A stretch of DNA of 64,000 nucleotides, taken from positions 192,001-256,000 of the forward strand of contig CAWHAA010000004.1 of the NCBI GenBank assembly GCA_963827275.1. The letters run 5' to 3'. The translations under genes were made by a program, and so were the position numbers. This DNA comes from an uncultured Spirochaetota bacterium. Its GTDB lineage: Bacteria > Spirochaetota > UBA4802 > UBA5550. Numbering within the stretch: position 1 is the first letter of the stretch; each line of letters begins with the position of its first letter. A model generated the notes under the pieces. That model saw only the letters and a program-made list of their open reading frames with translations. It did not search any database and was not told where the DNA came from. This document shows positions 9,355 to 52,240 of this stretch, piece by piece.

Positions 9355-9458
9355 CACAGGCCTCCTCGCGGGCATGATGAAAGACCGTATCCGATAATTA
9401 ATGCGTTAGACCCATATTATCGCTGAAAAGTTCGGCGCTGTCAATAAAAATTACCGGC

Positions 9459-10661: not shown

Positions 10662-10894
10662 GGATACCTGTCTCCCGTTGCAGGATGGTGCGGCCCGCCG
10701 GCCCATTAACGGTAGCGGGGCCGGTCCGGATTTTTGTCAATAGCTATTTTTTCCGCGCGCGGGGGCATGCACCGGGACCTGGCAGCGCCTGATTGCTGAA
10801 AATGTATTGAAAATATACCGGGCATGCCGTTGCCTGTAATCGCGGGGAAAATCCGCGCGTACCGGGGAAATTCATTGCACGGGTGGATACAGAC

Positions 10895-11893: not shown

Positions 11894-11907
11894 CGGGGCC
11901 CGTTGCC

Positions 11908-12993
11908 TCATTTGCCGGTATGATACACCAGCCTTCTCCCGATGAAATTCCAGATGAACGTCGCCGCCAGCGCGAAGAGCTTCGCGTACAGGGGCGGGAT
12001 TGAAAACCATTCCACGGACGCGTAGAGCGCAAGCTGGTGAAACGCGATCGCCATGAGCTGGATCACCAGTATCGCCGTAAACTCCGACTTCGAGTTTTTG
12101 AACACCGAGCCTTTCGTAAAAACGAACTTTCTCCCTGCGAAAAAATTCACCAGGAAGCCGAAGCAGAAGCTGATGAACCCCGCAACGAGGTAATGGACAC
12201 CGGCTATCTTCAGTAAAAAGATATAGATCCCGTAATCGACGACCAGCCCGGCGAGTGCCACCAGGAAATATTTAAGCATCAGGATGAAATTGAGCTTGCC
12301 CACCACGAGCTTCACCAGGGTCATCGCGAAGGTCAGGATGAACGCCGCCAGGTTGCGCTTGGTTTCGCCGAACATCCGTTTTTTGAACGAGTAGGGTATC
12401 TCGATAACCTTCAGGCCCGGGTTCGCGCGGTCCAGCTTGTAGAGGATCTCCTCGACGATGTCAAAATTATCGCACTCAAGCGGAATGCTCTTTAACAGGT
12501 CCGCCCGGTACAGCTTGAAGCTGTTCGATATGTCCCGGTAGCGGATATTCAGGGCCTTCGAATAGATGATGTTCAGCACCTTGGACATCGCCACGAGCGC
12601 CCTGTTGTTGTCGGTGAACCCGCCTGATACATAGCGCGATGCGATGACGACGTCGTGGTTGTTGCGGTGGCCGAACATGCTCGGTATGAACTCCGGGGTG
12701 TGCGACCCGTCCGCGTCCATGAACAGGATATATGCGCCGCGCGCCTTCTGAATCCCGGTCCTGATTGCATCGCCGTACGAGTTGCTGTTCTCCCTGTTGA
12801 AATAGAGCACCTTCTCTTTCTTGCAGATATCGCGTGTGTCGTCAAGGGGCGTCATGGTGTCGATGATGATGATCTCGTGCGGGCACCCCAGCCCTTTCAG
12901 GGTGCCCTTGAGGCGCGGGAGGAGCAGCCGGAGGTTTTCGGCCTCCAGGTAGCAGGGGAGCACGACGCTGAGATGCATGCCGTTATTTTTCAT
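11908..12993 (-). CDS. GT2 (polyprenyl-phosphate glycosyltransferase-like) fused to C-terminal GtrA domain
   Basis: [26 protein letters not shown] then four TM segments with GtrA pattern (VDYGIY..., NF...RKFVF, WNFIGRR). Confidence 0.88.
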
Positions 12994-14008
12994 TGGCTGA
13001 AACCCATTCCAGCATTTTGCGGATCCCGGTCACCGAGTCGATTTTCGGCGACCAGCCGAGGATTTTTTTCACCCTGGCCGTATCTGCCACGAAGACCTTC
13101 TGGTCGCTCTCGCGGGGAGGGAGCTTCGTGTACGTCAGCGTGGTCCCGAGCTCCCGGTCAAGGATGCCGAACAGCTCAAGGAGGGACAGGCTGTTCTTCA
13201 TGCCGCCCCCTATGTTGAACGCATGGCCCTTCGCCTCCTCGATCCGCTCGACAGTGTTCAGGTACAGGGCGATCATGTCGTCGGCGAAAAGAACGTCGCG
13301 CACCTGCTTGCCGTTGCCTGAGATGGTGAAGGGCGTGTCCAGCTTCCCGGCCTTCGCCCTGAGCGCCTGTCCGCAGAACCAGCCGATCCACCCCTGGTCG
13401 AACGTGGCAAACTGCCGCGTGCCGAACATCGAGGAGTGGCGGTAAACGACGGTCCTGAGGCCGAATATGCGGTGATAGTCCAGCATGTACTGGTCAGCGG
13501 CGCCCTTGGAGCAGCCGTAGGGCGAATGAAAATCAAGGGGTATCGTTTCAGGAAACCCGTCGGGAAACAGCGGCGCTACATACCTCGTTTCGGTTTCCCG
13601 GTATTCCGTCCACTCGAGGTCGCCGTACACCTTGTTCGTTGACGAATAGATGACGATCGATTCTGGGGAACAGAGCCTCACGGATTCGAGAATATTGAGC
13701 GTGCCCAGGGCGTTGGTCTCGAAGTCGAGGCGCGGGCTCTCTATCGAAGTGGTCATGGCGACCTGTCCCGCCAGGTGAAAGATGGCGTCCGGCAGCGTCT
13801 TTTTGATTATCCGCTCGACGTCCTCGCGGTTCCTGACGTCGCAATGCATGAAATCGAAGGGGCCGCATCCGCGGAGCCATTCGAGGTTTTTTTCGGCGCC
13901 GACCCGGTACAGGTTGTCTATGACGGTCACGCGGTCGCCCCGCAGGATTACTTCCCTCGCGAGGTTTGATCCGAGAAAGCCGCAACCGCCGGTGATAAGA
14001 AATTTCAT
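12983..14008 (-). CDS. rfbE: CDP-paratose 2-epimerase (CDP-tyvelose epimerase)
   Basis: [67 protein letters not shown] closely match Salmonella/Yersinia Tyv/RfbE. Confidence 0.93.
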
Positions 14009-14032
14009 CCTCTATGCTCCTTGCGTGGCATT

Positions 14033-14722
14033 CTATTCCCAGTCGTCGGTGATGATTTCCCGCTCCGGGACCCCGTTCCGGGACAAATAATTCCTGAAGT
14101 CCTTTATCATTGCCGGCGGCCCGGAGATGAAAAAGGTAGAACCGCCGCCGGCCTCTGCAAGCATGCCGGCTATGTCAAGCTTGCCGCGCTCGTCCTCGGC
14201 TATCACCGACACGATGAATGAAGGGTTTACCTCCCTTGCCCGGGCCAGGTATGTTCCGTAGATGTTGTGCGCGCTGTCGCGCACGCCAAAGTAGAGCCGG
14301 GGCGCGTCGTAGGCGCGGAACTGCCCGTCCGTGAACAGGGAAAGGAACGGGGTGATGCCGGTGCCGCCCGCGATGAACACGCACCGGTCCGTGGGGTGCT
14401 GCCTGCCGAACAGGTCGCCGTAGGGCAGCTTCAGGGTGACCGGCCTCCCCGGCGCCAGCTCCGCCGCCATGCGGCCGGTAAAGCGGCCTTTCACGGAAAA
14501 GGTGATGGTGATCTCGTCGTCGAGAGGCGCGGACTGCATGGAGAAACAGCGGGAATCGGGCCACTGGGCCGATGGATCATACTCGTCAAGGGCCAGGTGC
14601 AGGTATTGCCCCGGCCGGTACGAGAACTTCCGGTCACGGGACTTGAAGGAAACGACGTGAATCCCCTCGATCGGCATGGCAATGCGCGTGACCTCGGCGC
14701 GGTATTTCTTGACGATCGCCAT
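14033..14722 (-). CDS. FAD/NAD(P)-binding FNR-type reductase (RfbI/AscD-like, no 2Fe-2S domain)
   Basis: RPGQY, RCFS (RxxS), PYG, IAGGTGITPF, SGPPAM; TGATG coupling to rfbH. Confidence 0.8.
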   Translation of the reverse strand: MAIVKKYRAEVTRIAMPIEGIHVVSFKSRDRKFSYRPGQYLHLALDEYDPSAQWPDSRCFSMQSAPLDDEITITFSVKGRFTGRMAAELAPGRPVTLKLPYGDLFGRQHPTDRCVFIAGGTGITPFLSLFTDGQFRAYDAPRLYFGVRDSAHNIYGTYLARAREVNPSFIVSVIAEDERGKLDIAGMLAEAGGGSTFFISGPPAMIKDFRNYLSRNGVPEREIITDDWE

Positions 14723-16020
14723 CAGCGCTCCCCGATAAACGCGTCGATGACATCGGCGGTGTAGCGGATCATATCGTCCGTCATGCCGGGGTAGGTCCCG
14801 AGAAAGAAGGTGCTGTTCATCACCCGGTCCGTGTTCGCGAGGTCTCCGGCGATCCTGCACGGCTGGTTGATGAAGGCGGGCTGCCGTGTTATGTTTCCGG
14901 CGAAGATATTGCGCGTCTCTATGCGGTTGTCATTGAGGTGCTGGACGAGCTCATTCCGCGTGAAGGGCGCGCCGTCCCTCACCGTGAGAATATAGCTGAA
15001 CCACGCGGGGTCCGCGCCCGCGGTGGCCTCGGGCAGGAGGAAGTATTTTTCGTGGCGCGCGAACAGCTCCTGGTACAGGGCGAAGTTTTCACGCCGCCGG
15101 TCGCAGAACCGCTCCAGCTTGTCCATCTGGGCGCTGCCGATGGCCGCCTGCATATCGGTCATTTTCAGGTTATAGCCGAGCTCCGAATACACGTACTTGT
15201 GGTCATACCCGGGCGGCAGGGTGCCGAACTGCTGGGTGAACCGCTTGCCGCAGGTGTTGTTTTCGCCGCCGGCGCAGTAGCAGTCGCGGCCCCAGTCGCG
15301 TATGGACCTGGCGATCTGCGCGAGCTGCTCGTCGTTCGTGACGACCGCGCCGCCCTCGCCGGTGGTGATATGGTGCGCGGGGTAGAATGATGACGTGGCG
15401 ATATGGCCGAACGTCCCGGTGTAGCGGCCGCGGTAGCGGCTCCCCAGCGCGTCGCAGTTGTCCTCGATCACCCACAGGTCGTGCTCCCGCGCGACCGCCA
15501 TGACCGCGTCGATGTCGAAGGGGTTCCCCAGGGTGTGGGCGAGGAATATGGCGCCGGTCCTGTCCGAGACGGCGCGCTTCATCATCTCGATGTTGATGTT
15601 GTACGTGGGGAGGTCAATGTCAACGAAGACCGGGACCAGGCCGTACTGGAGGACGGGGGACACGGTCGAGGGAAACCCCGCCGCGACCGATATGACCTCG
15701 TCCCCTTTTTTCAGCCGCCGCTCGCCGAGCTTCTCGGAGGTGAGCGCTCCCAGCGCGATGAGATTTGAAGAGGAGCCCGAGTTGGTGAGAATGACATTTT
15801 CCGTGCCAAGGAACTCCGCGATCTTCTCGGAGAATTCCTCCGCGAACCGGCCCTCGGTAAGCCAGAAGTCGAGGCTGGCGTCAACAAGCTTGACGAGCTC
15901 CTCCTCGTCGAAGACCCGCCCCGCGTAGCGGACCGTGTCCTTGTCGCGGGAAAAGGGCCGCCGCTGAAACCGGTCCCGGTAGTACTCGCGCACCCTGCCC
16001 AGTATCTCTTCCCGGTCCAT
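14722..16020 (-). CDS. rfbH: CDP-4-keto-6-deoxy-D-glucose 3-dehydrase
   Basis: AHTLGNPF, EDNCD, SFYPAHHITTGEGG (His in place of PLP Lys), DWGRDCYC..NTC, GYDHKY. Confidence 0.95.
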   Translation of the reverse strand: MDREEILGRVREYYRDRFQRRPFSRDKDTVRYAGRVFDEEELVKLVDASLDFWLTEGRFAEEFSEKIAEFLGTENVILTNSGSSSNLIALGALTSEKLGERRLKKGDEVISVAAGFPSTVSPVLQYGLVPVFVDIDLPTYNINIEMMKRAVSDRTGAIFLAHTLGNPFDIDAVMAVAREHDLWVIEDNCDALGSRYRGRYTGTFGHIATSSFYPAHHITTGEGGAVVTNDEQLAQIARSIRDWGRDCYCAGGENNTCGKRFTQQFGTLPPGYDHKYVYSELGYNLKMTDMQAAIGSAQMDKLERFCDRRRENFALYQELFARHEKYFLLPEATAGADPAWFSYILTVRDGAPFTRNELVQHLNDNRIETRNIFAGNITRQPAFINQPCRIAGDLANTDRVMNSTFFLGTYPGMTDDMIRYTADVIDAFIGER

Positions 16021-16021
16021 G

Positions 16022-17134
16022 CTATTTCACGCTCCAGGGGATTTTGCGCTCGGCCGCCGCTGCGGCGTAGTCGTGTATCTGACGCCTGGTGAAATCGATC
16101 ATTTTTTTCCTGTCATAAAATTCCCGGTACCATGAAACCGTTTTTTCGAGGGCGGCGGCGGCCGAATAGACGGGGCGCCACCCGAGGAACGTGCGGGCCT
16201 TGCTGATGTCAAGCTTGAGCAGCTTTGCTTCGTGCGGCCCGCCCTCGTCCTGCACCGAGTAATTTCCGGAGCCCCACGTATTGATGGTCTCCTTCACGAT
16301 CTCCTCGACCGTGACGATGTCGTCGTTCTCGGGGCCGAAATTCCAGCCCGAGGCGTGGTCCGCGGGCGACTCGATGAGCCGTGCGCCGAGCCAGAGGTAG
16401 CCGGAGAGGGGCTCCAGCACGTGCTGCCAGGGGCGCGTCGCGCGGGGACTGCGGATGATGATCGTCTCTTTTTTCGCCAGCGACCGCACGCAGTCGGGGA
16501 TCAGCCGGTCCGCGGCCCAGTCGCCCCCGCCGATGACATTGCCGGCCCGTACCGAGGCGACCGCGGTGTTGTGCGCGGTGCCGAGCGCGGCCGGGGGGAA
16601 GAATGAATTCCGGTACGCCGCCACAATGAGCTCCGCGCAGCCCTTGCTGGAGCTGTACGGATCAAAGCCGCCCATGGGATCGTTTTCGCGGTACCCGTAC
16701 ACCCATTCCCTGTTTTCGTAGCATTTATCGCTGGTGATGATCAGCGCGGCCCGCACGGTGCCGGCGGCGCGCAGCGCCTCGAACAGGTTCACCGTGCCCA
16801 TGAGGTTCGTTTCATAGGTCTCCCGGGGCTCGCGGTAGGAGAGGCGGACGAGGGGCTGGGCGGCGAGGTGGAAGACGATCTCCGGTTTTTCGGCGCGCAG
16901 CGTCTCTGCGAGATGGCGCGCATCGCGGACATCGCCGACCAGGTGCTTCATTGATGATTCCAGCCCGAGCGCGGCGAAGAGCGACGGGTCGGTCGGCGGC
17001 TCAAGGGAATATCCGACGACGCGGGCGCCGAGCTCGTTGAGCCACAGGGAAAGCCATGATCCCTTGAAGCCGGTGTGGCCGGTCACGAGAACGGTTGTGC
17101 CGCTGTAGCGGCCGTTAAAAAGCGATTTCATCAT
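16022..17134 (-). CDS. rfbG: CDP-glucose 4,6-dehydratase
   Basis: TGHTGFKGSWL, AAQPLVR, TSDKCY, DPYSSSK, RAGNVIGGGDW, RPWQHVLEPL. Confidence 0.96.
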   Translation of the reverse strand: MMKSLFNGRYSGTTVLVTGHTGFKGSWLSLWLNELGARVVGYSLEPPTDPSLFAALGLESSMKHLVGDVRDARHLAETLRAEKPEIVFHLAAQPLVRLSYREPRETYETNLMGTVNLFEALRAAGTVRAALIITSDKCYENREWVYGYRENDPMGGFDPYSSSKGCAELIVAAYRNSFFPPAALGTAHNTAVASVRAGNVIGGGDWAADRLIPDCVRSLAKKETIIIRSPRATRPWQHVLEPLSGYLWLGARLIESPADHASGWNFGPENDDIVTVEEIVKETINTWGSGNYSVQDEGGPHEAKLLKLDISKARTFLGWRPVYSAAAALEKTVSWYREFYDRKKMIDFTRRQIHDYAAAAAERKIPWSVK

Positions 17135-18009
17135 AGGTGTGTCCTGTACCATTCCAGTGTCCTTTGAATTCCCTCCGCGAAGGGGACCGGTTCCCGTACC
17201 TGGAAGTCGCGGAAGAAGCGCCCCACATCAGGCCTTGATTCCAGGAGCTCGTTCTCCCGGTAGGGCAGGGCCCCGAAATTCAGCCGGGAGGCGGTATTGC
17301 CGGTCGCTTTCTGCAGCAGCTCCACGACGGCGCGGATGCTCATCGGCCTGCCGGTGCCGACGTCGTATTCGTAGATCCCCGGTCCGAATGCCTGGCCGCG
17401 CTCCACGACAGCGGCGTATGCCCCGGCGACGTCATCGATGTGGATAAAATCGCGCACCTGTTCGCCTTTTGTCAATTTAATTTCCGGCACATTCGTGAGG
17501 AGCTCTCGTATGATGAAAGGGATGAATTTGGAGTAATCATCCATCTCCCCGTACATGTGTTCCAGCCTGAGATTGATGAAGGCCATGGAGCGGCTGAATT
17601 CGGGGAACCATTCGGCAAATTGCTTTTTAGAGCGGGCATACGCGTTCGTGTTTTTATCAAGCACGGTGTCGGTGTTGATGAAGAGGGGCGTCCCGTGCCG
17701 GTGGGCGCTTTCAAGCACGCGCAGGGGGAACAGGCAGTTCGCGTCGAGGACCTGGGCGCGGGTTTCATTGTTTCTCCCGTAGAGGGTCGCGGTATGGATC
17801 ACGGCGGATACCGGATGTTTTGAAAACGCTTCGTCGATGTCGTCCTCGGCGTAACATACGCCGATGCGTTCCAGGTACCCGCGCAGGCGCCACGGGTCCG
17901 CCGCTTTCTGGGCGACGACGACCACGGACCTGCCGAGATCGGCGAACTGGCGGACCAGCCTGCTGCCGAGAAATCCGGTGGGCCCGGTAATTAATATCGA
18001 ATCAGTCAT
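17131..18009 (-). CDS. CDP-3,6-dideoxyhexose 4-reductase, probably CDP-paratose synthase (Prt/RfbS-like)
   Basis: TGPTGFLG, HTATLYGR, FINTDT, YARSK, LEHMYG, GEQVRDFI; co-occurrence with rfbE favours paratose over abequose. Confidence 0.8.
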   Translation of the reverse strand: MTDSILITGPTGFLGSRLVRQFADLGRSVVVVAQKAADPWRLRGYLERIGVCYAEDDIDEAFSKHPVSAVIHTATLYGRNNETRAQVLDANCLFPLRVLESAHRHGTPLFINTDTVLDKNTNAYARSKKQFAEWFPEFSRSMAFINLRLEHMYGEMDDYSKFIPFIIRELLTNVPEIKLTKGEQVRDFIHIDDVAGAYAAVVERGQAFGPGIYEYDVGTGRPMSIRAVVELLQKATGNTASRLNFGALPYRENELLESRPDVGRFFRDFQVREPVPFAEGIQRTLEWYRTHL

Positions 18010-18778
18010 GCCAGAGTTTCCATGGCGCCTTCGGGGAGTTCCACATTGCTTCCAGGTCGACCTTGTCGCGGAGCGTGTCCATCGGCTTCCAGAACCCGTA
18101 GTGCTTGTATGATCCCAGCTGGCCGTCGGACGCGAGCTTTTCCATCGGCTCGCGTTCCCACATGGTGGCGTCGCCGGGGATATAATCGAAGATGCCCGGC
18201 TCAAGGACAAAAAAGCCGCCGTTGATCCACGCCCCGTCGCCGCGCGGTTTTTCCTTGAAGGAATGGACGGTGGTGTCATCGCCTATGTCCATGGCGCCGA
18301 AGCGGCCGCTGGGCTGCACCGCGGTGACCGTCGCGAGCTTTCCGTGCGCCCTGTGGGTGTCGAGCAGTTTCGCGATGTCAACATCGCCGACGCCGTCGCC
18401 GTACGTCATCATGAACGGGCCATTCCCGACGTACTCCCGTATCCGCTTTATCCGGCCGCCGGTCATGGTGCCGGCGCCGGTATCGATCAGGGTCACCTGC
18501 CACGGCTCCGCTTTCGAGGCGTGATATTTCACGGCGTTTTTCTTCATGTCGAAGGTGACGTCGGATTGGTGAAGGAAGTAGTTCTGGAAATATTCTTTTA
18601 TGACGTACCCCTTGTACCCCAGGCAGATGATGAACTCATTGTACCCGAACGAAGAATAAATTTTCATGATATGCCAGAGGATGGGCCTGCCGCCGATCTC
18701 TATCATGGGCTTCGGCTTGAGATCGGTTTCTTCGCTGAAGCGCGTGCCGAAACCGCCTGCCAGGATGACAACTTTCAT
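18002..18778 (-). CDS. rfbF: Glucose-1-phosphate cytidylyltransferase
   Basis: LAGGFGTR..EET..KPKPMIEIG, TMTGGR, TYGDG, WINGGFF, GFWKPMDTLRD. Confidence 0.96.
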   Translation of the reverse strand: MKVVILAGGFGTRFSEETDLKPKPMIEIGGRPILWHIMKIYSSFGYNEFIICLGYKGYVIKEYFQNYFLHQSDVTFDMKKNAVKYHASKAEPWQVTLIDTGAGTMTGGRIKRIREYVGNGPFMMTYGDGVGDVDIAKLLDTHRAHGKLATVTAVQPSGRFGAMDIGDDTTVHSFKEKPRGDGAWINGGFFVLEPGIFDYIPGDATMWEREPMEKLASDGQLGSYKHYGFWKPMDTLRDKVDLEAMWNSPKAPWKLWHD

Positions 18779-19417
18779 AACACCTTCACTTTCTGTAGAT
18801 TATTGTATGCGGACCAATGGATTTTCATGTATATGAAAACGCGAATCTGCTGATTTAGCTTTCTGAAGAAATGATGTATTTGTCAATGAAATTTTATGGG
18901 CGTGGCGTTTTTGAATGACCAAATAATCGGCGGTTCGGTGCTGGCTGCCTACAGGCAGCTATGGCATGCGGACGATGTGCTTTTTCATATATATATCCTT
19001 ACCAGATGCATGGGGATGCATGCAGGTATAATCGATACCCAGATGGTAATTGTTGCCATACATTGAGCATAAATATGACATGGGGGGTTTTGGAATCCCG
19101 GCAAAAATACATATGATCCGGCAGTAAAAAATTATTGATTATTATTTGACAATGTAATGTTATATTCCAGTTTGTGGTGATTATTTTTAAACACTTTCAT
19201 GACTAATCTACAATCCAAACAGGTTGATCCATATCCGGTGTTCGATCAATTTGAGGGTCTGTTGTTGCTTGGATACCAATGAAGACACCGACTGTGGCCT
19301 GGTCCACTGATAATGGTTATGGGCAGAAAAACAGGAAGATTGGGTATGTAAGATTCGAGCGCGTGATATATATTCAGCTTTTATATTTATGAAAATCACC
19401 TATAGGAGCGGCGTGCA

Positions 19418-22341: not shown

Positions 22342-22356
22342 AACAAGGAGATAGAC

Positions 22357-22917
22357 ATGGATATAAAGCCGATGATTACTGAATATATTGATGGATTATG
22401 CAATTTACTTAAAAGTATGGACGTGGAGCGGATCGATGCCTTTTTAAAGGCGATAAGGAAAACGAGAGAGGAGGGTAAACAGATTATCCTCTTCGGCAAC
22501 GGGGGGGCCGCAGCCTCCGCATCGCATATGACCTCCGACTTCAACAAAGGATTGAGTTATGGCAAGGAGAAGAGATATCGTGCCATCTGTCTCAATGATA
22601 ATATTGCAATTATGCTCGCGTATGCGAATGACGTAGGGTATGATGATATTTTCGTTGAGCAACTGAAGAATTTTTTAAATCCCGGGGATGTCGTAATTGG
22701 CATTTCCGGGAGTGGTAATTCTGAAAATGTCTTGCGCGCAATTGATTATGCCAATAAAAACGGCGGCTTCACGATGTGTATTTGCGGTTTCAATGGCGGG
22801 AAGTTGATCAACATGGTTAAAGTGGCGGTTCATGCGAATATCAATGACATGCAGAAGACTGAAGATATATTTCCAATGCTTGGTCATCTTGCGTATCAGC
22901 TTCTTGCAGATAACTAA
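22357..22917 (+). CDS. gmhA: Sedoheptulose 7-phosphate isomerase (SIS domain)
   Basis: GNGG.AA.ASH, YAND, GISGSGNSEN, GFNGG. Confidence 0.85.
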   Translation: MDIKPMITEYIDGLCNLLKSMDVERIDAFLKAIRKTREEGKQIILFGNGGAAASASHMTSDFNKGLSYGKEKRYRAICLNDNIAIMLAYANDVGYDDIFVEQLKNFLNPGDVVIGISGSGNSENVLRAIDYANKNGGFTMCICGFNGGKLINMVKVAVHANINDMQKTEDIFPMLGHLAYQLLADN

Positions 22918-22970
22918 TTGCTCCTGAAAGTTATTGATTTTAAAATTATATATACAAAGAAGGCAGATCG

Positions 22971-24272
22971 ATGAAGGACAAACGTATATGTGTGCTCGGT
23001 GGCGGACTTGCGGGAATCTCGTTCGCATACTTTTCGGGCTTACAGGCCACGATAATAGAAAAAGAGGAACGACTCGGAGGATTGTGCAGGTCTTTTAATT
23101 TTAATGGTGCATATTACGATATTGGCCCTCACATATTTTTTTCAAAGAATAAAGAGATCCTTGATTTCATAACATCGCTGGTCGAGATGAATCAACGAAA
23201 ACGATCAAACAAGATTTATTATAAGGGCAATTTTGTTAAATATCCATTTGAAAATGAACTCTCCGCGTTGCCGGAAAAAGACCGCGATTATTGCCTCAAT
23301 TCCTTCATTGAAAATCCCTATTCACCGTATGATGCAAATAACATGCTCATGTTTTTCTATAAGACCTTTGGTGAGGGAATAACCCGCTGTTATCTTGAGC
23401 CGTATAATAGAAAAATCTGGAAATACGAGCCGTCATTCATGGACACGCAGATGGTCGAGCGCATTCCAAAGCCGCCTGCCGAGGATGTGATCAAGTCGGC
23501 GAAGGGTGTCCCGACGGAAGGCTATTTGCATCAGCTGTATTTTTCTTATCCGAAAGAATTCGGCACGGAATCCATAATAAAGAAACTTGTTGGATTATGC
23601 GGGTCTCGCATCAACCCCGTGTTGTCTTCTCCAATCGAAAAGGTCGTCATCAATGATGATAAAACGTTTGATGTCACCGCAGGCGGTAAGAAGTATCAAT
23701 TTGATCATTTGATCAATAGCATCCCGCCGCAGGAACTCCTGAAAAGGATCGAGCCCCTGCCACCGAAAGAAGTGCTTGATGCGTGTGAGATGCTGCGGTT
23801 CAATGGAATTCATATTACTATCGTGAACGTCAATGAAGATGCAATTGGCGATAACTTTGCGGTGATGGTGCCCCAGCCTGACATAAGCTTTCACCGGCTG
23901 TCGAAAATCGATTTTCTCGGCGATTCGTACCATAAGGAAAAAACTTCAAATCTCATGGTCGAGATTACCTACCGCCCCGGCGATCCTTTCGACATGCCGG
24001 ATGACGATGTGAGCAGAATGGTTGTCGCTGATCTTGAAAGAGTGGGGTTTATTAAAGCATCGATGGTGAATCATGTTGAAACAAGGTCTTTCCCCTATGC
24101 CTATGTGATTTATGATCTCCATCACAGGGAGAATATTGACACAATTCTGGCATGGCTCCGGATCAAGGGAATTACCTGTATTGGAAGGTTCGGACTGTTT
24201 GAATACCATAACATGGATACGATTGTCGAGAAAACAAAAGAGATCGCCCAAAAATATTCCAAGGTGCAATAA
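22971..24272 (+). CDS. FAD-dependent oxidoreductase (protoporphyrinogen oxidase/NDP-sugar pyranose mutase-like)
   Basis: LGGGLAG, GGLCRS, DIGPHIFF, PYNRKIW, YP..G, AYVIYD, GRFGLFEYHNMD. Confidence 0.75.
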   Translation: MKDKRICVLGGGLAGISFAYFSGLQATIIEKEERLGGLCRSFNFNGAYYDIGPHIFFSKNKEILDFITSLVEMNQRKRSNKIYYKGNFVKYPFENELSALPEKDRDYCLNSFIENPYSPYDANNMLMFFYKTFGEGITRCYLEPYNRKIWKYEPSFMDTQMVERIPKPPAEDVIKSAKGVPTEGYLHQLYFSYPKEFGTESIIKKLVGLCGSRINPVLSSPIEKVVINDDKTFDVTAGGKKYQFDHLINSIPPQELLKRIEPLPPKEVLDACEMLRFNGIHITIVNVNEDAIGDNFAVMVPQPDISFHRLSKIDFLGDSYHKEKTSNLMVEITYRPGDPFDMPDDDVSRMVVADLERVGFIKASMVNHVETRSFPYAYVIYDLHHRENIDTILAWLRIKGITCIGRFGLFEYHNMDTIVEKTKEIAQKYSKVQ

Positions 24273-24411
24273 ATGCGGGTGCCGGTATTGTACAAATGAA
24301 ACCAACAATCAAGTTTTCCTGCTTTCCTTAAAACTTGATTGACAAAAAGTGCGGAAATGAACCAATAAATCATTCCGTCAAATTACAAAATAGTCATTAA
24401 GAAAGGAAAAA

Positions 24412-25113
24412 ATGAGTACTAAGTATAAAATCTCAGTTGTAATGCCTACATTTAATGAAGAAAAGGCCCTTCCCATCGTTGTCAGCGATATCCGGAAGTT
24501 CGCTTCGGATTGGAATACCGAGATTCTTATTGTTGACTCAAGTAGCGACGATACGCCGAAAATCGCAAAAGGCCTCGGGGTCAAGGTCATAAGTCAGCCT
24601 CCCAGAGGGCATGGCATTGCATTGCGGACGTGTATACAGGAGGCTTCCGGAGACTATATTTTTACAACGGACTGTGACAATACCTATCCAATGGACATGC
24701 TCCCCCAATTTCTGGAAGCCCTTACGAAAGGAGGCTGTGATCTCGTTTCCGGCAACCGCATGTATTACCCGGACGTCCGAAAGGCAATGCCCTTTTCCAA
24801 TCTTCTTGCAAATCGCGGGTTCGCGTTATTTGTTCGCCTGTTATACGGCATTAAAACCCATGATGTTACAACCGGGATGTTCGGCTTTAGAAGGGACGTT
24901 GTCCATGCAATAGAGTGGGAAACAAATTATTCATTTCCTTCTGAAATTATTATCAGATCGAACTTGGCCGGTTATAAGTATAAAGAGATTCCGATTAATT
25001 ACAAGCTTCGTCTTGGGGAAGTAACACTCAATAAGTGGAGAAGCGGGAAGGCATATATGCGATGCTTCTTCAAATATCGGTTTAACCTCTCCACGCCGAA
25101 AGAAAAGCTGTAA
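24412..25113 (+). CDS. GT2 glycosyltransferase, DPM-synthase/GtrB-like
   Basis: VVMPTFNEE, VDSS, TDCDNTYP, SGNR, RLGEV; short soluble GT2. Confidence 0.88.
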   Translation: MSTKYKISVVMPTFNEEKALPIVVSDIRKFASDWNTEILIVDSSSDDTPKIAKGLGVKVISQPPRGHGIALRTCIQEASGDYIFTTDCDNTYPMDMLPQFLEALTKGGCDLVSGNRMYYPDVRKAMPFSNLLANRGFALFVRLLYGIKTHDVTTGMFGFRRDVVHAIEWETNYSFPSEIIIRSNLAGYKYKEIPINYKLRLGEVTLNKWRSGKAYMRCFFKYRFNLSTPKEKL

Positions 25114-25116
25114 ACT

Positions 25117-26058
25117 ATGAATGTTTTAGTTACAGGCGGAGCGGGTTTTATCGGAAGCCATCTCTGTGCTTCCCTCCTTGATATGAACCATAACGTATAT
25201 TGCCTTGATAGCCTTTACCTGGGCAGAATGGAAAATATCAATGAGCTCCTCGGCAATGGCAGATTTCATTTTGTTGAACTCGACCTGCTGAAAAAAAAGA
25301 AGCTTTCAAGGTTGTTCGGCAAGAACAGGTTCGACATGGTCTTCCATCTTGCGGCTAATTCGGATATTCAGGCCGGGAGCTCAAACCACCTGATCGATCT
25401 GGACCATAATTTCATGACCACCTACACCCTCCTCGAGGTGATGCTCGAGCATGATGTTAAAAATATTTTTTTTGCGAGTACTTCTGCCGTATTCGGCGAA
25501 ACGCGCACCATGCTGCATGAGAACTTTGGCCCGCTTGCACCTATTTCGTTCTACGGCGCGAGCAAGCTTTCCGCGGAGGCGTATATATCGGTATTCGTCA
25601 ATAATTACGGGTTCAAGGCATGGGTCCTCCGTTTTCCGAACGTGATAGGCGAGCATGCGACACATGGCGCATTATTTGATTTTATTGAAAAGCTTAAGAA
25701 AGATCCTTCCCGCCTTGTTGTGCTAGGCAACGGGAAACAAACGAAGCCCTATATGTATGTTAAGGATCTCATTGCGGCAATCCTCCTCGTGTGGAAAAAA
25801 TCGGATGAACCTTTAAATATATTCCATGTCGGCAATGTTGATCTCACTTCAGTCAAGGAAATAGCCGAGATTGTCGTGGAAGAGATGGGACTGGCCGGGA
25901 TCCCGATAGAATACACCGGTGGAGAGAAGGGATGGGTGGGGGATGTCCCGTATTTTAATTATGATATAACGAAAATAAAGGCGCTTGGCTGGACCCCGAA
26001 ATATAATTCTACTGAAGCGGTTCGGGTCTCTACGAAAAAAATATTAGGCAAGGTGTAA
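25117..26058 (+). CDS. NAD-dependent nucleotide-sugar epimerase/dehydratase
   Basis: GGAGFIGSH, HLAANSD, STSAV, YGASK, THG..FDF, GWVGDV. Confidence 0.88.
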   Translation: MNVLVTGGAGFIGSHLCASLLDMNHNVYCLDSLYLGRMENINELLGNGRFHFVELDLLKKKKLSRLFGKNRFDMVFHLAANSDIQAGSSNHLIDLDHNFMTTYTLLEVMLEHDVKNIFFASTSAVFGETRTMLHENFGPLAPISFYGASKLSAEAYISVFVNNYGFKAWVLRFPNVIGEHATHGALFDFIEKLKKDPSRLVVLGNGKQTKPYMYVKDLIAAILLVWKKSDEPLNIFHVGNVDLTSVKEIAEIVVEEMGLAGIPIEYTGGEKGWVGDVPYFNYDITKIKALGWTPKYNSTEAVRVSTKKILGKV

Positions 26059-26122
26059 GTTTAAGGCAACAATGCTGCACCGTGACCGGGGCGCAACGTA
26101 TTAAAGAAATCCTGCTATTGAT

Positions 26123-26605
26123 ATGCAAAAAAATATTTTATACAAAGTTCACAACCTTTTCTTCTCGGTTCAGTTTGGCAAATTTCTCGCAGTCGGCGGA
26201 ACCGCTGCCATTGCTAACTATTGTTCAGGATGGATGATGCGATCCCTGTATCCTTCGCTGTTGAACGAAGTGAGCGTCGTTATAGGATATACTGTCGGAA
26301 CGATCATCAGCTTTATCTTTAATAAGTTGTTTACTTTTAAAGCCGTTGATGAAAAGACCTCGGTTCAGGCCTTGAAATTTCTTGTTGTCGCTTTTACCGC
26401 CGCCCTGCTCGGTGCCGGGATTTCGAGGCTCGTTTTGATTATTTTCGATGGCATTGATATTTCGGTCATTGACAGGCAAATCGAGAAAAATATAAGCCAT
26501 ATTTTCGCAATAGGTATTACGACCATATATAATTTCCTCGCCATGAAATATTTTTCATTTAAGAAAATCACAATAACGAATCGTAACATCAGACCACTCG
26601 TGTGA
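26123..26605 (+). CDS. GtrA family flippase
   Basis: 160 aa with four TM segments; KFLAVGG, SFIFNKLFTF, YNFLAMKYFSF. Confidence 0.85.
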   Translation: MQKNILYKVHNLFFSVQFGKFLAVGGTAAIANYCSGWMMRSLYPSLLNEVSVVIGYTVGTIISFIFNKLFTFKAVDEKTSVQALKFLVVAFTAALLGAGISRLVLIIFDGIDISVIDRQIEKNISHIFAIGITTIYNFLAMKYFSFKKITITNRNIRPLV

Positions 26606-26844
26606 ATATTACTATACGCGCACAATCGCCCACGGGTGCTGCACGGCGCATGGGTCCCGGCAGGCACGGATACCTGACGTCCTATTAAAGACCCTGGTAG
26701 CTTTGAGGGCTTTAGCCTTGATCGATGAGCGCCGGCTTGTGTCTGCCTGAGGAAGGCTTGGGTCCGGCCATCTGGAAAAAGCCGGAATATTGCACAGGAA
26801 GTCATTGAACTCTTCATCTGTGGCTAAACACGGAGTGTGTATAA

Positions 26845-28962
26845 ATGCAAAAATCAAATGTGTATTCAATTGTGCTGATTGCAGCGTTGCTGTTCCTCGG
26901 CATGCTGCTGGCGCCCTTCCATATAATGCAGCATGATCTTTCCATGATCCCCGGGGATTTCATCGATACCCGCTTCAACAACTACATGCTTGAGCACGGG
27001 TACCGGTGGCTTACCGGCCAGGTGGCGCATTTCTGGGACGCGCAGTACTGCTACCCGGTGCCGGATGTTACCGCCTTTTCCGACAGCCACCTCGGGCTCT
27101 TCTGGCTCTACTCGCTGTTTCGCTTTGCGGATTTCGACAGGGAAACATCGCTGCAGCTCTGGATTATCGTCATGTTCGCGTTAAATTACCTCTCCTCCGC
27201 GTACGCCCTCCGGAAAATGGAGATCAATGCCCTCGGGGTCGCGGTCGGCTCGTTTATCTTTGCTTTTTCCATGCCGGTCATGGGGCAGATGATCCACATT
27301 CAGCTCCTGCCGCGGTTCCTGGTGCCCCTGATAGTCCTTTTCACGGTGCGGTTTCTTGACCGCCCGGGCGTCTTCGTGTTATTCAAACTGTGCCTTGCCA
27401 TCGTGGCGCAGTTTTACTGCACGTTCTATATCGGGTATCTCTCCGTCCTGGCGGTGATCGCCCTCGTGATCGGGTATGTGCTGCTAAATTTCAGGGATCG
27501 CAGGGAGCTGCCGTTTTTCACGGATTTCACGCGGGACATCTGGAAAAAGCTCGGCGTGGCCGCCGGGTCGGCCCTGCTGCTCCTGCCGGCCATGCTCCCG
27601 TATCTTCCTGTCGTCGCAAAGTACGGTTACCGGAGGTGGGAGGAGATTGCGCTTATGCTGCCACGGTTCTCCTCGTATTTTTTCCCCCCTGACGGGACCC
27701 TCCTCTGGGACTGGCTCAAGCCGCTGGGCCACGGATTGCCGATGCCGTGGGATCATTATCTTTTTGTCGGCGCCTTCCCTATTGCGGCGGTGATCGTTCT
27801 GATCATAATGTATCTGCGCTCGTCCGATCGTGACTCCCTTCTGAAATGGGGGTTCGTAGCGGTCATCACCCTGGCTATTCTGACGGTCATCACCCTGTCG
27901 GTGCGCAACGTGTCTTTATATCGATTGGTCTATAAGCTAATTCCCGGTCTTTCATCCGTGCGCTCGCTTGCCAGGATTATTCTCGTTGACCTGTTTTTCT
28001 TGTCCATGATTTCCGGGATCGTTATCACGAGGTGCTCAAGGCTGCTGTCAGGGAAATCGCCTGTTATAAAGGGCGTCGTTGCCCTGATTGTTATATCTGT
28101 CTTTGCTGTTGATCAGTATGTTGTAATCCCTGACAGTTTTTCAAAAAAGGAGGCGCAGGAACGTTCGCGTAATGTTGAGGATCTCATGATGAAGCAAAAT
28201 CCCAGCGCCATAATTTATGCTTATATTCCGCAAGCGAAGAAATGGTCATTGCGAACGGTATTTGCCGATCACATCGATGCAATGATGGCGGCGCAGAGCC
28301 TTAACAAGTATACCGTGAATGCCTATAGCGGACAACTGACAACGGAACTCCAGAATATGCTTGTGCTGCCGCTCTATCCGCGTGAAGTCCGCTGTCTGGC
28401 GCTGCGCAGGTGGGGAAGGGCGACGGAGCTGTTGTATAACAAGAAAGACTGGTACAGGAAGATATCGATCGTTGATCCTGGCGATACGGCCCCCTGTCCG
28501 GCATCCAGATTCACAGAGTTAGACTTCAGCGGTATTGATCATCCACTGGACGATGCCGCCTGCAATGCGGAAATCACCTTTGACAGGCCCGTCCACACCA
28601 TCGACCGGTATGACGTGTATGTGATGGAGGTCAAGGTCAAAAACAGGAGCGCTGTCACGTGGCCGGTCCTGGGTGACGGCACCGGGAAATACGCGGTCGG
28701 CCTTACGTATCGCTGGCTCGGGTCCGACCGTAAACCGTTGACAGGGTATGACCAGAAGGTATATTTCCTGTACGATCTGAAGCCGCGGGAAACGATGCGC
28801 GTGTCAGTGCCGGTCTATCGCCCCTTCGACACGGGGGAATATCACCTTGAATTCGACGTGTTCCAGGACTCGGTGCTGAGATTTCAGGATAAAGGGTCTC
28901 GGACTTCAATGGTAAAAATTGTCGCGACAGGCCTTGGCGATTCAGGGTTCACATGGAAATGA
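26845..28962 (+). CDS. Polytopic membrane protein, probable GT-C fold glycosyltransferase with C-terminal Ig-like domain
   Basis: Acidic loop after TM1 (PGDFIDTRFN...FWDA..YP....AFSD), about 10-12 TM, SVRSLAR motif, NAYSG, C-terminal VKN.S..W...L.P.E..GEY beta-sandwich. Confidence 0.7.
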   Translation: MQKSNVYSIVLIAALLFLGMLLAPFHIMQHDLSMIPGDFIDTRFNNYMLEHGYRWLTGQVAHFWDAQYCYPVPDVTAFSDSHLGLFWLYSLFRFADFDRETSLQLWIIVMFALNYLSSAYALRKMEINALGVAVGSFIFAFSMPVMGQMIHIQLLPRFLVPLIVLFTVRFLDRPGVFVLFKLCLAIVAQFYCTFYIGYLSVLAVIALVIGYVLLNFRDRRELPFFTDFTRDIWKKLGVAAGSALLLLPAMLPYLPVVAKYGYRRWEEIALMLPRFSSYFFPPDGTLLWDWLKPLGHGLPMPWDHYLFVGAFPIAAVIVLIIMYLRSSDRDSLLKWGFVAVITLAILTVITLSVRNVSLYRLVYKLIPGLSSVRSLARIILVDLFFLSMISGIVITRCSRLLSGKSPVIKGVVALIVISVFAVDQYVVIPDSFSKKEAQERSRNVEDLMMKQNPSAIIYAYIPQAKKWSLRTVFADHIDAMMAAQSLNKYTVNAYSGQLTTELQNMLVLPLYPREVRCLALRRWGRATELLYNKKDWYRKISIVDPGDTAPCPASRFTELDFSGIDHPLDDAACNAEITFDRPVHTIDRYDVYVMEVKVKNRSAVTWPVLGDGTGKYAVGLTYRWLGSDRKPLTGYDQKVYFLYDLKPRETMRVSVPVYRPFDTGEYHLEFDVFQDSVLRFQDKGSRTSMVKIVATGLGDSGFTWK

Positions 28963-29020
28963 CCGCGCGCATGCAGCCGTTTGCGCGATGAAACAATCAT
29001 GGTATGGAGGATGCGGTCCG

Positions 29021-30844
29021 ATGAATGACAGTAACAGGTCCCGGAAGTTCATTGCGGCGGCGGTCCTGTATGCGGGGATCGCCCTCTCGTGCCTCGTTCT
29101 TCTCGCACTGGTGATGAAGCTGTGGAGGGCGGACCTTGCCGTTCCCTTCAGCTACCGCGGCGACGGCATCATGTGCGCCGAATGGGTCAAGTCCGTCGTC
29201 GATAACGGATGGTATATACGGAACGATCATGTCGGCATGCCGGGGGGGAAACATCTCGGCGATTTTCCCATGTCGGACAATCTCCATTATCTTCTCATCA
29301 AGCTGCTGTCCCTGTTCACGAACGACTGGGCCGTTGTCATAAACGTATTCTTCCTGCTCATGTTCCCGCTCATAGCAATGTCGGCCTATTGTGTCCTCCG
29401 GCGCTTCAGGATTTCGGCGCCGGGCGCGTACGCCGGGGCGGTCCTGTTCGCGTTCCTCCATTATCATTTCGTGCGGGGGATGGACCACATCTTCCTTTCG
29501 GCGTATTACCTTGTCCCCCCCGCGGTGCTGGTGGCAGTATGGCTGGCCTCGGGCGAGCTTACCGCGGTGGCCGCCGCCCCTGCCGGGGAGGGGGCGGGGA
29601 CGCCGAAGAAAAAAATGCTGGCGGCGGGCATCATCTGCTTTCTCGTCTCGGGCGCCGGCATCTACTACGCGTTTTTTACCTGCTTCTTCGTCATGCTCGC
29701 GGGGGCCCTCCGCTCCGTCCGGGAAAGGGGCCTGCGCCCCGCCATCGCCGCTGCCGCGCTGACGGCGGTCGTGGCGGTCGGCGGGATCATCAACCTCTCG
29801 CCGCACATCGCGTACCGGCTCGCCCATGGCAAAAACCCGGTGGCCACGGCCAGGGTGTATCACGAGGTGGAGCTGTACGCGCTCAAGGTGACGAGCCTGC
29901 TGATGCCGGCCTCCGATCACCGTATACCGGTGCTGGCCGCGCTGAAAGACCAGTATGTCCGCGAGTCAAGCTTCGTGCACCGGTTCACGGGCGAGGCGGA
30001 GAGCGCAAGCCTCGGCGTCATTGCCGGCGCCGGCTTTCTCTTCCTCGTTATCTTTCTCCTTATTAACAGGGGCAGGGACGACTTCGCCGACCCGGAACAG
30101 GGATACCGTTATTCGCTGCTGCGCATCCTGGCCATCTTCAACGCGGCCGCCCTGCTGCTTGCCGGCGTCGGCGGCTTCAACTCTTTCGTGGCCATCCTGC
30201 TGCGGTACATGATCCGCGTGTATGCCCGCATCAGCATTTTTATCGCCTTCTTCTCCATCGCGGCCGTGCTCCTGGTTGCCGAGCATGCGTTCGCCCGGTA
30301 CACTGCGTGCCGGCGGGACCGCGGGACTGCGGCGGTGATCGCCTCCGGCGTACTGGCGTTGCTCCTGGTGGCTGTGGGGCTGTTTGACCAGACCGCGCGG
30401 AGTTCCATGCCGAAGTATGAGGCGATTAATAAAAGCTTCCATGACGACCGGTCGTTTGTCGCAGCAATAGAAAAAATCATGCCGGAAAAGGCGATGATAT
30501 TCCAGCTTCCCTACATCGCGTATCCTGAGTCGCCGCATCCCGGCCGCATGGTCGTGTATGACCATTTCCGGGGCTATCTTCATTCCCGTGATCTGCGGTG
30601 GAGCTACGGCGCCATGAAGGGACGGGAAACGGACGCATGGCAGAAGTCGGTCGCCTCCCTTCCCGCGCCCGGGCTGCTGCGCCGGCTGAAGGCCAGCGGT
30701 TTTTCCGGGGTCTTTATTAACCGCCGGGGATATCAGGACAACGGCGCGGGGATCATCGGCGAGATCGGCAGGCTGACGGGGTCTCGCGCCGTCGAAAGCG
30801 CGAACGGGGAGCTCGTCTTTTTCGATATCCGCTCATCGCGGTAA
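29021..30844 (+). CDS. Polytopic membrane protein, probable GT-C fold glycosyltransferase
   Basis: GGAGG RBS; YRGDG...DNGWY...DFPMSD loop after TM1, YHFVRG, IRVYARISIFI, QLPY..YPE, WSYGAMKGR. Confidence 0.7.
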   Translation: MNDSNRSRKFIAAAVLYAGIALSCLVLLALVMKLWRADLAVPFSYRGDGIMCAEWVKSVVDNGWYIRNDHVGMPGGKHLGDFPMSDNLHYLLIKLLSLFTNDWAVVINVFFLLMFPLIAMSAYCVLRRFRISAPGAYAGAVLFAFLHYHFVRGMDHIFLSAYYLVPPAVLVAVWLASGELTAVAAAPAGEGAGTPKKKMLAAGIICFLVSGAGIYYAFFTCFFVMLAGALRSVRERGLRPAIAAAALTAVVAVGGIINLSPHIAYRLAHGKNPVATARVYHEVELYALKVTSLLMPASDHRIPVLAALKDQYVRESSFVHRFTGEAESASLGVIAGAGFLFLVIFLLINRGRDDFADPEQGYRYSLLRILAIFNAAALLLAGVGGFNSFVAILLRYMIRVYARISIFIAFFSIAAVLLVAEHAFARYTACRRDRGTAAVIASGVLALLLVAVGLFDQTARSSMPKYEAINKSFHDDRSFVAAIEKIMPEKAMIFQLPYIAYPESPHPGRMVVYDHFRGYLHSRDLRWSYGAMKGRETDAWQKSVASLPAPGLLRRLKASGFSGVFINRRGYQDNGAGIIGEIGRLTGSRAVESANGELVFFDIRSSR

Positions 30845-30893
30845 GGCCGCGCCCCGCTGCCGGGCCCGCCGCGCGGGAGAAGCCGCCGCAAAT

Positions 30894-30923
30894 AAAAAAC
30901 GCCGGGCTCCCGCCCGGCGTTTT
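30894..30923 (-). terminator. Intrinsic terminator of flaB, probably bidirectional
   Basis: AAAACGCCGGGC-TCCC-GCCCGGCGTTTT perfect hairpin with T-tracts on both strands between convergent genes. Confidence 0.85.
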
Positions 30924-30980
30924 GAATGACACTGTCCCGTTTCAATATTGATTAAGAAAGGATACGGGACTGGCTCAAAC

Positions 30981-31829: not shown

Positions 31830-31849
31830 ATTTTCCTCCTTGAAATTCC

Positions 31850-31871
31850 CCGTCATCATCCGTGATGACGG
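31850..31871 (-). promoter_or_regulatory. Putative CsrA-binding hairpin in the flaB 5' UTR
   Basis: mRNA reads CCGUCAUCA-CGGA-UGAUGACGG: 9-bp perfect stem with ACGGA at the loop, just upstream of a GGA-containing SD. Confidence 0.7.
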
Positions 31872-49881: not shown

Positions 49882-49895
49882 CGACAGCCCGTGCC

Positions 49896-52230: not shown

Positions 52231-52240
52231 AGGTGTTCCG

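Follow-up and report, generated by a model that had tools for sequence, protein, structure and literature searches.

A strain-variable spirochaetal glycosylation locus with predicted tyvelose and heptofuranose lipid-carrier cassettes

Dideoxyhexoses are textbook side branches of O-units attached in the cytoplasm, and the usual route for heptoses is addition by Leloir transferases. Lachnoanaerobaculum (Eubacterium) saburreum has a heptose polymer decorated with tyvelose as side branches. The Salmonella group D1 and Yersinia pseudotuberculosis S modules have the gene order ddhDABC-prt-tyv-wzx-wbaV (PMC5399914, in the part available). Three-component systems, as described in the available part of PMC11127046, include GtrB/GtrA/Gtr* for glucose, a galactose system in Klebsiella, and undP-Ribf/Xylf with GT136 in Citrobacter. 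Here, we analyze a locus at positions 11908..30844 of a 64,000-nucleotide stretch (the window) of contig CAWHAA010000004.1 from an uncultured Spirochaetota bacterium (assembly GCA_963827275.1). It encodes two nucleotide-sugar cassettes, each with a family 2 glycosyltransferase (GT2a on the left, GT2b on the right) and a GtrA-type flippase candidate, followed by two membrane proteins, GT-C 1 and GT-C 2.

The locus is probably a mosaic that varies between strains, made up of two donor cassettes of independent inheritance and two GT-Cs. The left cassette would likely make polyprenyl-phosphate-tyvelose, the right one polyprenyl-phosphate-heptofuranose, and the GT-Cs would transfer the lipid-borne sugars, outside the cytoplasm, to an acceptor at the cell surface, probably one other than lipopolysaccharide (LPS). 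By sequence and fold criteria open to testing, namely a polyprenyl-phosphate GT2, GtrA, and a GT-C fold, it may be classed as three-component extracytoplasmic glycosylation, with donor and transfer predicted; the individual reactions, the pairing of GT-Cs with donors, and the acceptor are what we infer from these features.

The tyvelose operon and its GT2-GtrA clade

The left operon runs on the minus strand in the order rfbF, prt, rfbG, rfbH, a reductase gene, tyv, and the GT2-GtrA fusion.

11908..12993, minus strand: GT2-GtrA fusion of PfDPMS-like architecture (GT2a), predicted CDP-tyvelose:polyprenyl-phosphate transferase with a fused flippase domain
12983..14008, minus strand: tyv/rfbE, CDP-paratose/tyvelose 2-epimerase
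14033..14722, minus strand: 229-aa FAD/NAD-binding reductase, probable stand-in for E3 (DdhD), a role suggested by its position
14722..16020, minus strand: RfbH/DdhC (E1, CDP-4-keto-6-deoxyglucose 3-dehydrase)
16022..17152, minus strand: RfbG/DdhB, CDP-glucose 4,6-dehydratase, start probably at 17134
17131..18009, minus strand: probable CDP-paratose synthase (Prt), a C4 reductase
18002..18778, minus strand: RfbF/DdhA, glucose-1-phosphate cytidylyltransferase

Orthologues of RfbF, RfbG, RfbH, and Tyv are thus all present in the window. RfbF scores 437 bits against TIGR02623 (cut-off 300; 63% identity to the Salmonella protein), RfbG 495 bits against TIGR02622 (cut-off 278; 55%), and RfbH 685 bits against NCBIfam NF011936 (cut-off 423; 52%). 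Tyv matches the CDP-tyvelose 2-epimerase 9RL0 in the PDB at 560 bits and 1ORR at 454 bits, and is 59.8% identical to Salmonella Tyv. The similarity of Prt to Salmonella Prt (34%, 134 bits) and to Abe (31%, 132 bits) is nearly equal, and the paratose rather than the abequose reading is adopted because tyv adjoins. The 229-aa reductase contains Pfam NAD_binding_1 and FAD_binding_8 domains and no 2Fe-2S domain; it matches the flavin/NAD part of E3 only, with 28% identity across 103 aa to the Salmonella protein's C-terminal portion.

From this homology and gene coupling, RfbF would convert glucose-1-phosphate to CDP-glucose, RfbG would yield the 4-keto-6-deoxy sugar, and RfbH together with the short reductase would produce the 3,6-dideoxy intermediate, from which Prt and Tyv would form CDP-paratose and then CDP-tyvelose. 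The GT2 domain of the fusion would then load tyvelose, with inversion, onto polyprenyl phosphate, and flipping of the product would be the task of the fused GtrA domain.

The fusion protein carries Pfam GT2 at residues 9-169 and GtrA at residues 241-356, the same architecture as its best PDB match, Pyrococcus furiosus DPMS (PfDPMS, 5MLZ; E 5.5e-30). The PfDPMS arginines R117 and R202 are named in the available part of PMC12690121; their counterparts R120 and R206, as well as the DxD motif, are kept in 34/34 aligned rows of the GT2a clade. The original prediction took both GT2s to be of the polyprenyl-phosphate type. The searches agree and set both apart from the O-unit transferases WbaV/RfbV: the best PDB match is PfDPMS, GT2a has no BLAST match to Salmonella WbaV/RfbV at E 10, and GT2b matches them at E 0.03-0.16. 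In a tree that took in 42/80 loci from the GT2a search and 30/78 GT2b loci, a branch of 4.8 changes per column splits the GT2s from WbaV/RfbV.

The coupling of GT2a to the tyvelose pathway is conserved far beyond this genome. A scan of 4/64 parts of a genome collection, with the best 80 of 589 matches kept, gave 20 loci at 42% identity or above and 60 below. The 20 proteins of the former group, which come from 12 named phylum-level groups, later proved to form one clade with GT2a of the window (SH-aLRT 99 in a quick tree), and by extrapolation the clade may comprise about 300 species. A CDP-tyvelose epimerase gene lies within 1 kb of the GT2 in 18/20 clade loci vs. 0/60 of the more distant ones; of the two exceptions, L010 has a tyv fragment of 97 aa, and the sequence of L011 stops 0.6 kb upstream. 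A protein of the isolate Geobacter sp. AOG1 is 61% identical to GT2a, which makes this isolate a candidate cultured model. The GT2-tyv gap is below 40 bases in 15 of the 18 loci, a prt-like gene occurs in 13/20, and rfbH in 6/20 within the available stretch. Among selected membrane open reading frames (ORFs) scanned with Pfam, GT-C families were detected in eight of the 20 loci (one below cut-off), unassigned multi-helix proteins in eight more, and GtrA in four. As a reverse check, 802 genomes were searched with tyv alone, yielding eight matches, of which three had already been counted. In two of the five new loci a clade GT2 adjoins tyv, with a PMT_2-type GT-C nearby; the other three have an RfbV-like glycosyltransferase instead, two of them with Wzx/MATE.

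These counts bear on the proposal that GT2a loads a common sugar (e.g., mannose from GDP-mannose, or from CDP-mannose made by a promiscuous epimerase) and that a cytoplasmic transferase encoded elsewhere consumes the CDP-tyvelose. Databases label the clade 'dolichol-phosphate mannosyltransferase', the 9RL0-type epimerase presumably interconverts CDP-glucose and CDP-mannose, and the scarcity of rfbH in the clade loci fits as well. Nevertheless, we regard this proposal as unlikely: no WbaV/RfbV homologue is found at E 1e-3 among the ORFs of the host genome (92% complete), the GT2 is tightly linked to tyv and in most clade loci accompanied by a prt-like gene, and GT2a and RfbV-like genes alternate beside tyv in 5/5 new loci. 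Tyvelose thus stays our preferred donor for GT2a.

Six of the 20 clade loci (L003, L005, L006, L009, L014, L019) encode a thiamine diphosphate-dependent enzyme beside the CDP-dideoxy genes, and the window has none; because of this enzyme, the clade may load branched, yersiniose-like relatives of tyvelose in other hosts. In L005 (10710-13832), the tyv-linked GT2 is directly followed by a 1040-aa protein with an N-terminal GtrA domain and ~21 helices, likely a GtrA-GT-C fusion.

The heptose-type cassette

The right operon is read from the plus strand, and its seven cassette genes precede those of the two membrane proteins.

19418..21331, plus strand: fusion of an HddC-like nucleotidyltransferase, a GmhB-like phosphatase, and a P-loop kinase (Pfam NTP_transferase, HAD, PRK)
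21328..22341, plus strand: HddA-like GHMP sugar-1-kinase (NF049969, 180 bits, cut-off 600)
22357..22917, plus strand: GmhA-like SIS isomerase of a non-canonical subfamily (TIGR00441, 91 bits, cut-off 209)
22971..24272, plus strand: UDP-galactopyranose mutase (UGM)-like flavoenzyme, predicted pyranose-to-furanose mutase
24412..25113, plus strand: soluble-type GT2 (GT2b) from the branch of haloarchaeal dolichyl-phosphate hexose transferases, with transfer of a furanose to polyprenyl phosphate as its predicted role
25117..26058, plus strand: short-chain dehydrogenase/reductase (SDR) of the GDP-sugar 4-epimerase subgroup (PDB 3EHE, E 4e-74; 8RDG, E 2.4e-71)
26123..26605, plus strand: GtrA-family flippase candidate (Pfam PF04138, E 9.4e-15)

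All genes of the original inventory are present at their coordinates; it had left unnamed the mutase (22971-24272) and the 4-epimerase (25117-26058), the two enzymes that define the right-hand sugar. PF04138 exceeds its cut-off twice in the locus.

GT2b scores 203 bits against NF041391 (cut-off 375), shares 43% identity with an annotated member from haloarchaea, and matches PfDPMS at E 9.9e-18; its DxD motif is kept, as are the residues equivalent to R117 and R202. We take NF041391 to be the family of HVO_1613. In the available part of PMC9943897, that protein is called a DolP glycosyltransferase. A metagenome scan produced 77 GT2b loci. The closer group (score at least 220) has 24 loci of at least 10 kb, and heptose-type genes, the mutase, and the 4-epimerase are each found in 19/24 of these, vs. 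no heptose-type genes in the 10 long loci that belong to the more distant group. Each of the two GT2s accompanies its own sugar pathway across unrelated lineages, GT2a with tyv and GT2b with heptose-type genes, in support of the original prediction. The three-domain fusion recurs in 6/77 metagenome loci (L092, L096, L101, L102, L103, L134). No pathway step calls for its P-loop kinase domain (window 20750-21331).

The flavoenzyme is most similar in the PDB to the Trypanosoma cruzi-type UGM 4DSG (E 2.8e-26), followed by further UGMs. It has the FAD motif of the UGM family, the His loop, two substrate arginines, and the C-terminal GRxG...YxNMD motif, and residues H54, R164, R309, Y378, R406, Y412, N414, and D416 are invariant in 32/32 cassette homologues, so that mutase activity is predicted. 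The roles of these conserved residues are taken to be those usual in the family. The SDR belongs with PDB 8RDH, the GDP-preferring 4-epimerase PhGal4E_1 (PMC12171764, in the part available), whose Y145, N174, and H182 align with Y146, N175, and H183. The GmhA-like isomerase has D61 and E169 where solved GmhA has E and Q, and these replacements are typical of cassette homologues (D in 11/12, E in 12/12). The equivalent GmhA positions are presumably metal ligands.

We propose a right-hand scheme that is less sure than the left one. A ketose-7-phosphate isomerase, a 1-kinase, a phosphatase, and a guanylyltransferase would lead to GDP-heptose; the SDR would epimerise its C4 and the mutase would contract the ring. 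GT2b would then attach the furanose to polyprenyl phosphate, and flipping would fall to the free GtrA. The donor is likely a furanose because relatives of GT2b travel with a UGM-like enzyme and a GDP-sugar 4-epimerase. Of the GDP-heptose pathway in the original prediction, the GmhA-, HddA-, GmhB-, and HddC-type genes stand; their scores are far under the cut-offs (the HddC part reaches 49 bits against 300), the isomerase is non-canonical, and the donor is probably a furanose and not plain D-glycero-D-manno-heptose. Since the entry enzymes score below the heptose cut-offs, any assignment of chain length and configuration to this sugar is tentative.

Our tentative preference, itself doubtful, is D-glycero-D-galacto-heptofuranose made via a gluco-configured intermediate of the non-canonical isomerase. 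UGM-family mutases prefer galacto-type substrates, and 4-epimerisation takes gluco to galacto, for which reason a gluco-forming isomerase is favoured. It is also possible, if rather less so than a heptofuranose, that the cassette makes something else: a GDP-hexofuranose (e.g., galactofuranose from fructose-6-phosphate), an octose, or a talo-heptose from canonical manno-heptose. The low scores of the isomerase, the kinase, and the nucleotidyltransferase, all far below the NCBIfam heptose cut-offs, count against a heptofuranose. Yet the heptose families GmhA, HddA, GmhB, and HddC are among the best named matches of the four entry enzymes, and GDP-heptose pyranose/furanose mutases have been proposed in Campylobacter HS:10 and HS:41 (PMC10680097, in the part available).

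Probable module shuffling and the two GT-C proteins

The original prediction of a single conserved two-donor system with two donors, two GT2s, two GtrAs, and two GT-Cs was not supported by comparison with other strains and loci. The two cassettes were probably inherited separately and joined by recent module shuffling, rather than forming a conserved two-donor machine. The features concerned are as follows.

18916..26894: swappable low-GC block, comprising the whole right donor cassette and the first 50 bases of GT-C 1
26845..28962, plus strand: GT-C 1, 705-aa membrane protein of GT-C fold (predicted model)
29021..30844, plus strand: GT-C 2, 607-aa, DUF6311-related membrane protein of GT-C fold (predicted model)

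Codon use marks the right block as foreign: the GC content at third codon positions is 0.47-0.54 there, 0.69-0.88 in its surroundings, and 0.76 as the genome median. A 17,203-base contig of run X3 matches positions 11200-18915 with 104 differences over 7,716 bases, then has 2,630 other letters in place of the 7,979 of the heptose block, and resumes at 26895. In this strain, galE, both GT-Cs, and the tyvelose operon are all retained, as is the beginning of the flagellin gene. A piece from run X7 likewise diverges upstream of 26911, which lends weak support to the swap. Sequences from the heptose block, for the most part 95-99% alike, also turn up in two other runs (X2 and X9) and, though at low depth, in X3; the block thus exists outside this assembly. 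The cassettes do not meet elsewhere: hddA, gmhA, the mutase, and GT2b are absent from all 80 loci of the GT2a search, and GT2a from all 77 GT2b loci. Partial left-type genes occur in two GT2b loci, a tyv-like gene 9.7 kb off in L088 and rfbFGH in L142.

An integrated system, in which each GT-C is dedicated to one donor and both sugars decorate one acceptor, would account for the exact 2:2:2:2 count and the divergent arrangement, as well as for the position of GT-C 1, co-oriented just behind the heptose GtrA and with its first 50 bases swapped along with the block. We consider it quite improbable, given the lack of co-occurrence, the difference in codon use between the cassettes, and the persistence of both GT-Cs without the heptose block in run X3.

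Both membrane proteins were originally predicted to have a GT-C fold, and this is supported by structural models, whose matches are almost exclusively GT-C enzymes. The AlphaFold model of GT-C 1 has a pTM of 0.77, with residues 551-705 at low confidence (a C-terminal Ig-like domain is probable there, as a lead only), and its top Foldseek matches are STT3, PglB, AglB, AftA, and DPY19 (best E 1.1e-6). The model of GT-C 2 (pTM 0.92) matches STT3, AglB, DPY19, AftA, and ArnT (best E 2.8e-7). For both proteins, the matches listed at E<=1e-3 are GT-C enzymes or oligosaccharyltransferase-containing complexes, with TM-scores of 0.35-0.50. The two are distant homologues of each other (HHalign 98.4%); both keep an Asp in the early loop after the first helix, and D41 of GT-C 1 is invariant. 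Neither contains the WWD or WWxYG oligosaccharyltransferase motif of STT3/PglB/AglB, and neither is assigned to a family in Pfam or NCBIfam searches. DUF6311 is annotated on 13/40 listed relatives of GT-C 2, and also in Atlas. Plasmid searches returned one distant match per GT-C and no close member of the GT2a or GT2b clades.

The two GT-Cs might instead be unrelated slot cargo that uses a housekeeping lipid-linked hexose, and the unusual donors would then be used by GT-Cs encoded at other places in the genome. A 39% relative of GT-C 2 occupies another site in congener G218, in which neither GT2 was detected; a 28% relative of GT-C 1 stands beside UDP-glucose dehydrogenase genes; and congener G307 has a donor cassette in the slot without a GT-C. 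At identities of 30-40%, though, donor choice need not be kept, the linkage of both GT-Cs to the tyvelose operon is preserved in the X3 strain, and they are as rare as the cassettes: GT-C 1 is found in 0/45 and GT-C 2 in 1/45 family genomes, GT2a in 0/16 congeners and 0/400 phylum genomes, and GT2b in one of the 400 (at 42%). On balance we find this alternative fairly unlikely, and prefer GT-Cs that use the donors made in the locus.

Several observations weigh against the mosaic of two unusual donor cassettes and their GT-Cs as we read it. The GT2a metal motif is DADGSH instead of DADLQH, and the equivalent of PfDPMS R131 is R in 18/34 clade rows and K in five; GT2b has N at the R131 and S135 positions, though the haloarchaeal enzyme also has both N. 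Strong RfbV-like glycosyltransferases occur in 2/20 GT2a clade loci, 7-10 kb off, and weak ones in three more, and at least three pairs among the 24 metagenome loci are near-copies. The swap is known from one contig of one run besides the X7 piece, and among the contig pieces listed none spans a junction at either side of the heptose block. Beyond GT2a and GT2b, the genome has two further GtrB/AglJ-like GT2s, as well as other GT-C candidates, and the GT-Cs of the locus could therefore use other donors. Finally, profiles of both GT-Cs detect no member in 80 + 78 (158) GT2 loci, so that their donor pairing is not readable from synteny.

Beside ispE/prs there is a second GT-C position, which on contig C4 of this genome holds a weak PMT_2-type protein (L218:12700-14406) and in G218 the GT-C 2 relative (L181:17234-19081), with no donor genes in either case. 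Also on C4, a GT2 gene is split into two short ORFs (L218:5383-6157); it is intact (247 aa) in G218.

The variable slot, the acceptor, and comparison with known systems

The locus fills a slot with the following borders.

10883-11893: galE, left border
11894..30980: hypervariable surface-glycan slot between galE and the flagellin gene
30981-31859: flagellin gene, right border

Neither cassette is found at this position in the seven congeners examined, each of which holds different cargo. In the closest one, G307, it includes GtrA, a HAD phosphatase, and a phosphoribosyltransferase of the UbiA type (231 bits against a cut-off of 234), and resembles the undP-ribose donors in the available part of PMC11127046. 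All five genes of that cassette (L183:3133-6463) encode an SMR/EamA protein, DUF362, the phosphatase, the phosphoribosyltransferase, and GtrA, with no adjoining GT-C; it looks like a polyprenyl-phosphate-pentofuranose donor module, in which DUF362 could be a redox or epimerase partner. The cargo of G291 comprises a GT2, DUF2304, and EamA, and that of G349 and G298 includes Wzx. Repeat and promoter scans of our locus yielded no noteworthy insertion sequence ends, target duplication, or surplus of promoter-like sites. Next to the slot, a gene at 9459-10706 encodes an L-2-hydroxyglutarate oxidase-like flavoprotein that in G307 lies directly 3' of GtrA, and 8122-9375 encodes a 417-aa putative lipoprotein made up almost entirely of E/R/K/Q coiled-coil repeats, with no Pfam match. 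Farther off are two tandem branched-chain amino-acid binding proteins, the second one shorter (48730-51088), and a permease region apparently broken into short ORFs (52231-53313).

The flagellin gene at the border of the slot raised the idea of flagellin glycosylation, which was dropped, adjacency being the sole evidence; the flagellin itself is, we presume, spirochaetal in appearance. LPS, one of the acceptors named originally, is unlikely: LpxC was found in 0/17 genomes of the genus (79-99% complete, this one included) and LpxB was not found in this genome, in searches whose positive controls (E. coli and others) matched. Wzx, Wzy, Wzm/Wzt, GT4, and phosphoglycosyl transferases were said to be missing from the window, and none is encoded among the window ORFs scanned (30 + 34, with two in both, out of 179, many of which are shadow frames). 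A Wzx/Wzy/Wzz/phosphoglycosyl-transferase cluster is present on contig C10 of the genome. The acceptor is most likely a glycolipid or the glycan of that Wzx/Wzy cluster, and otherwise possibly a periplasmic protein. The same contig carries a trio with high GC at third codon positions (L222:5138-8965), in which a membrane protein of 567 aa is accompanied by an AglJ-like GT2 and a flippase candidate of the LPG-synthase-TM type, probably a housekeeping three-component system.

No description of a polyprenyl-phosphate-linked dideoxyhexose or heptose was found in the open full-text literature, with few subscription papers covered and the candidate list in Fig. S11 of PMC11127046 outside the search. 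The locus would thus appear to follow a known strategy with two apparently undescribed donor classes. If so, polyprenyl phosphate can also serve to deliver dideoxyhexoses and heptoses outside the cytoplasm, a widespread clade labelled 'dolichol-phosphate mannosyltransferase' would be reassigned, and the DUF6311-like GT-Cs would gain a function; a swappable donor block would allow surface glycans to vary in a lineage where lpxC was not found. A bolder generalization is speculative at present: two unrecognised GT2 clades may constitute lipid-carrier routes for CDP-3,6-dideoxyhexoses (in hundreds of species from at least 12 phyla, as an alternative to Wzx/WbaV) and for GDP-heptofuranose, and in an LPS-less lineage with a donor-tolerant GT-C behind a plug-in slot, strains may exchange whole donor cassettes, the surface type switching by the lipid-linked sugar and not by the transferase.

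Among the described systems, the three-component ones share with this locus a lipid-phosphate sugar synthase, a small flippase, a GT-C, an auxiliary epimerase that diversifies the donor, and serotype-like swapping. Relative to the available part of PMC11127046, the differences are that donors come here from CDP-3,6-dideoxyhexose and GDP-heptose pathways, the latter with a mutase, that two cassettes lie side by side, that the host genus has no detected lpxC, and that the GT-Cs are DUF6311-like with no Pfam match of their own. At the level of single enzymes, the left fusion resembles PfDPMS (5MLZ) in joining a GT2 to a GtrA-like membrane domain and in its DxD and acceptor/donor arginines, and the right enzyme resembles the haloarchaeal dolichyl-phosphate hexose transferases of NF041391, being 43% identical to a member. 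Unlike these relatives, both belong to separate clades tied to unusual nucleotide-sugar pathways, fall below the family cut-offs, and show an altered metal motif. The Salmonella D1 and Y. pseudotuberculosis modules have RfbF, RfbG, RfbH, and Tyv in common with the left cassette (52-63% identity), whereas here a DPMS-like GT2-GtrA replaces wzx and the O-unit transferase, and E3 is without its 2Fe-2S domain. In the GDP-heptose pathways of Campylobacter jejuni HS:10 and HS:41, as given in the available part of PMC10680097, an isomerase, a kinase, a phosphatase, and a guanylyltransferase are likewise followed by stereo-modifying enzymes and a mutase. The right cassette departs from them in having a 4-epimerase and no 4,6-dehydratase, in its non-canonical isomerase, and in its coupling to a lipid-carrier GT2 and GtrA rather than to capsule-polymerising glycosyltransferases.

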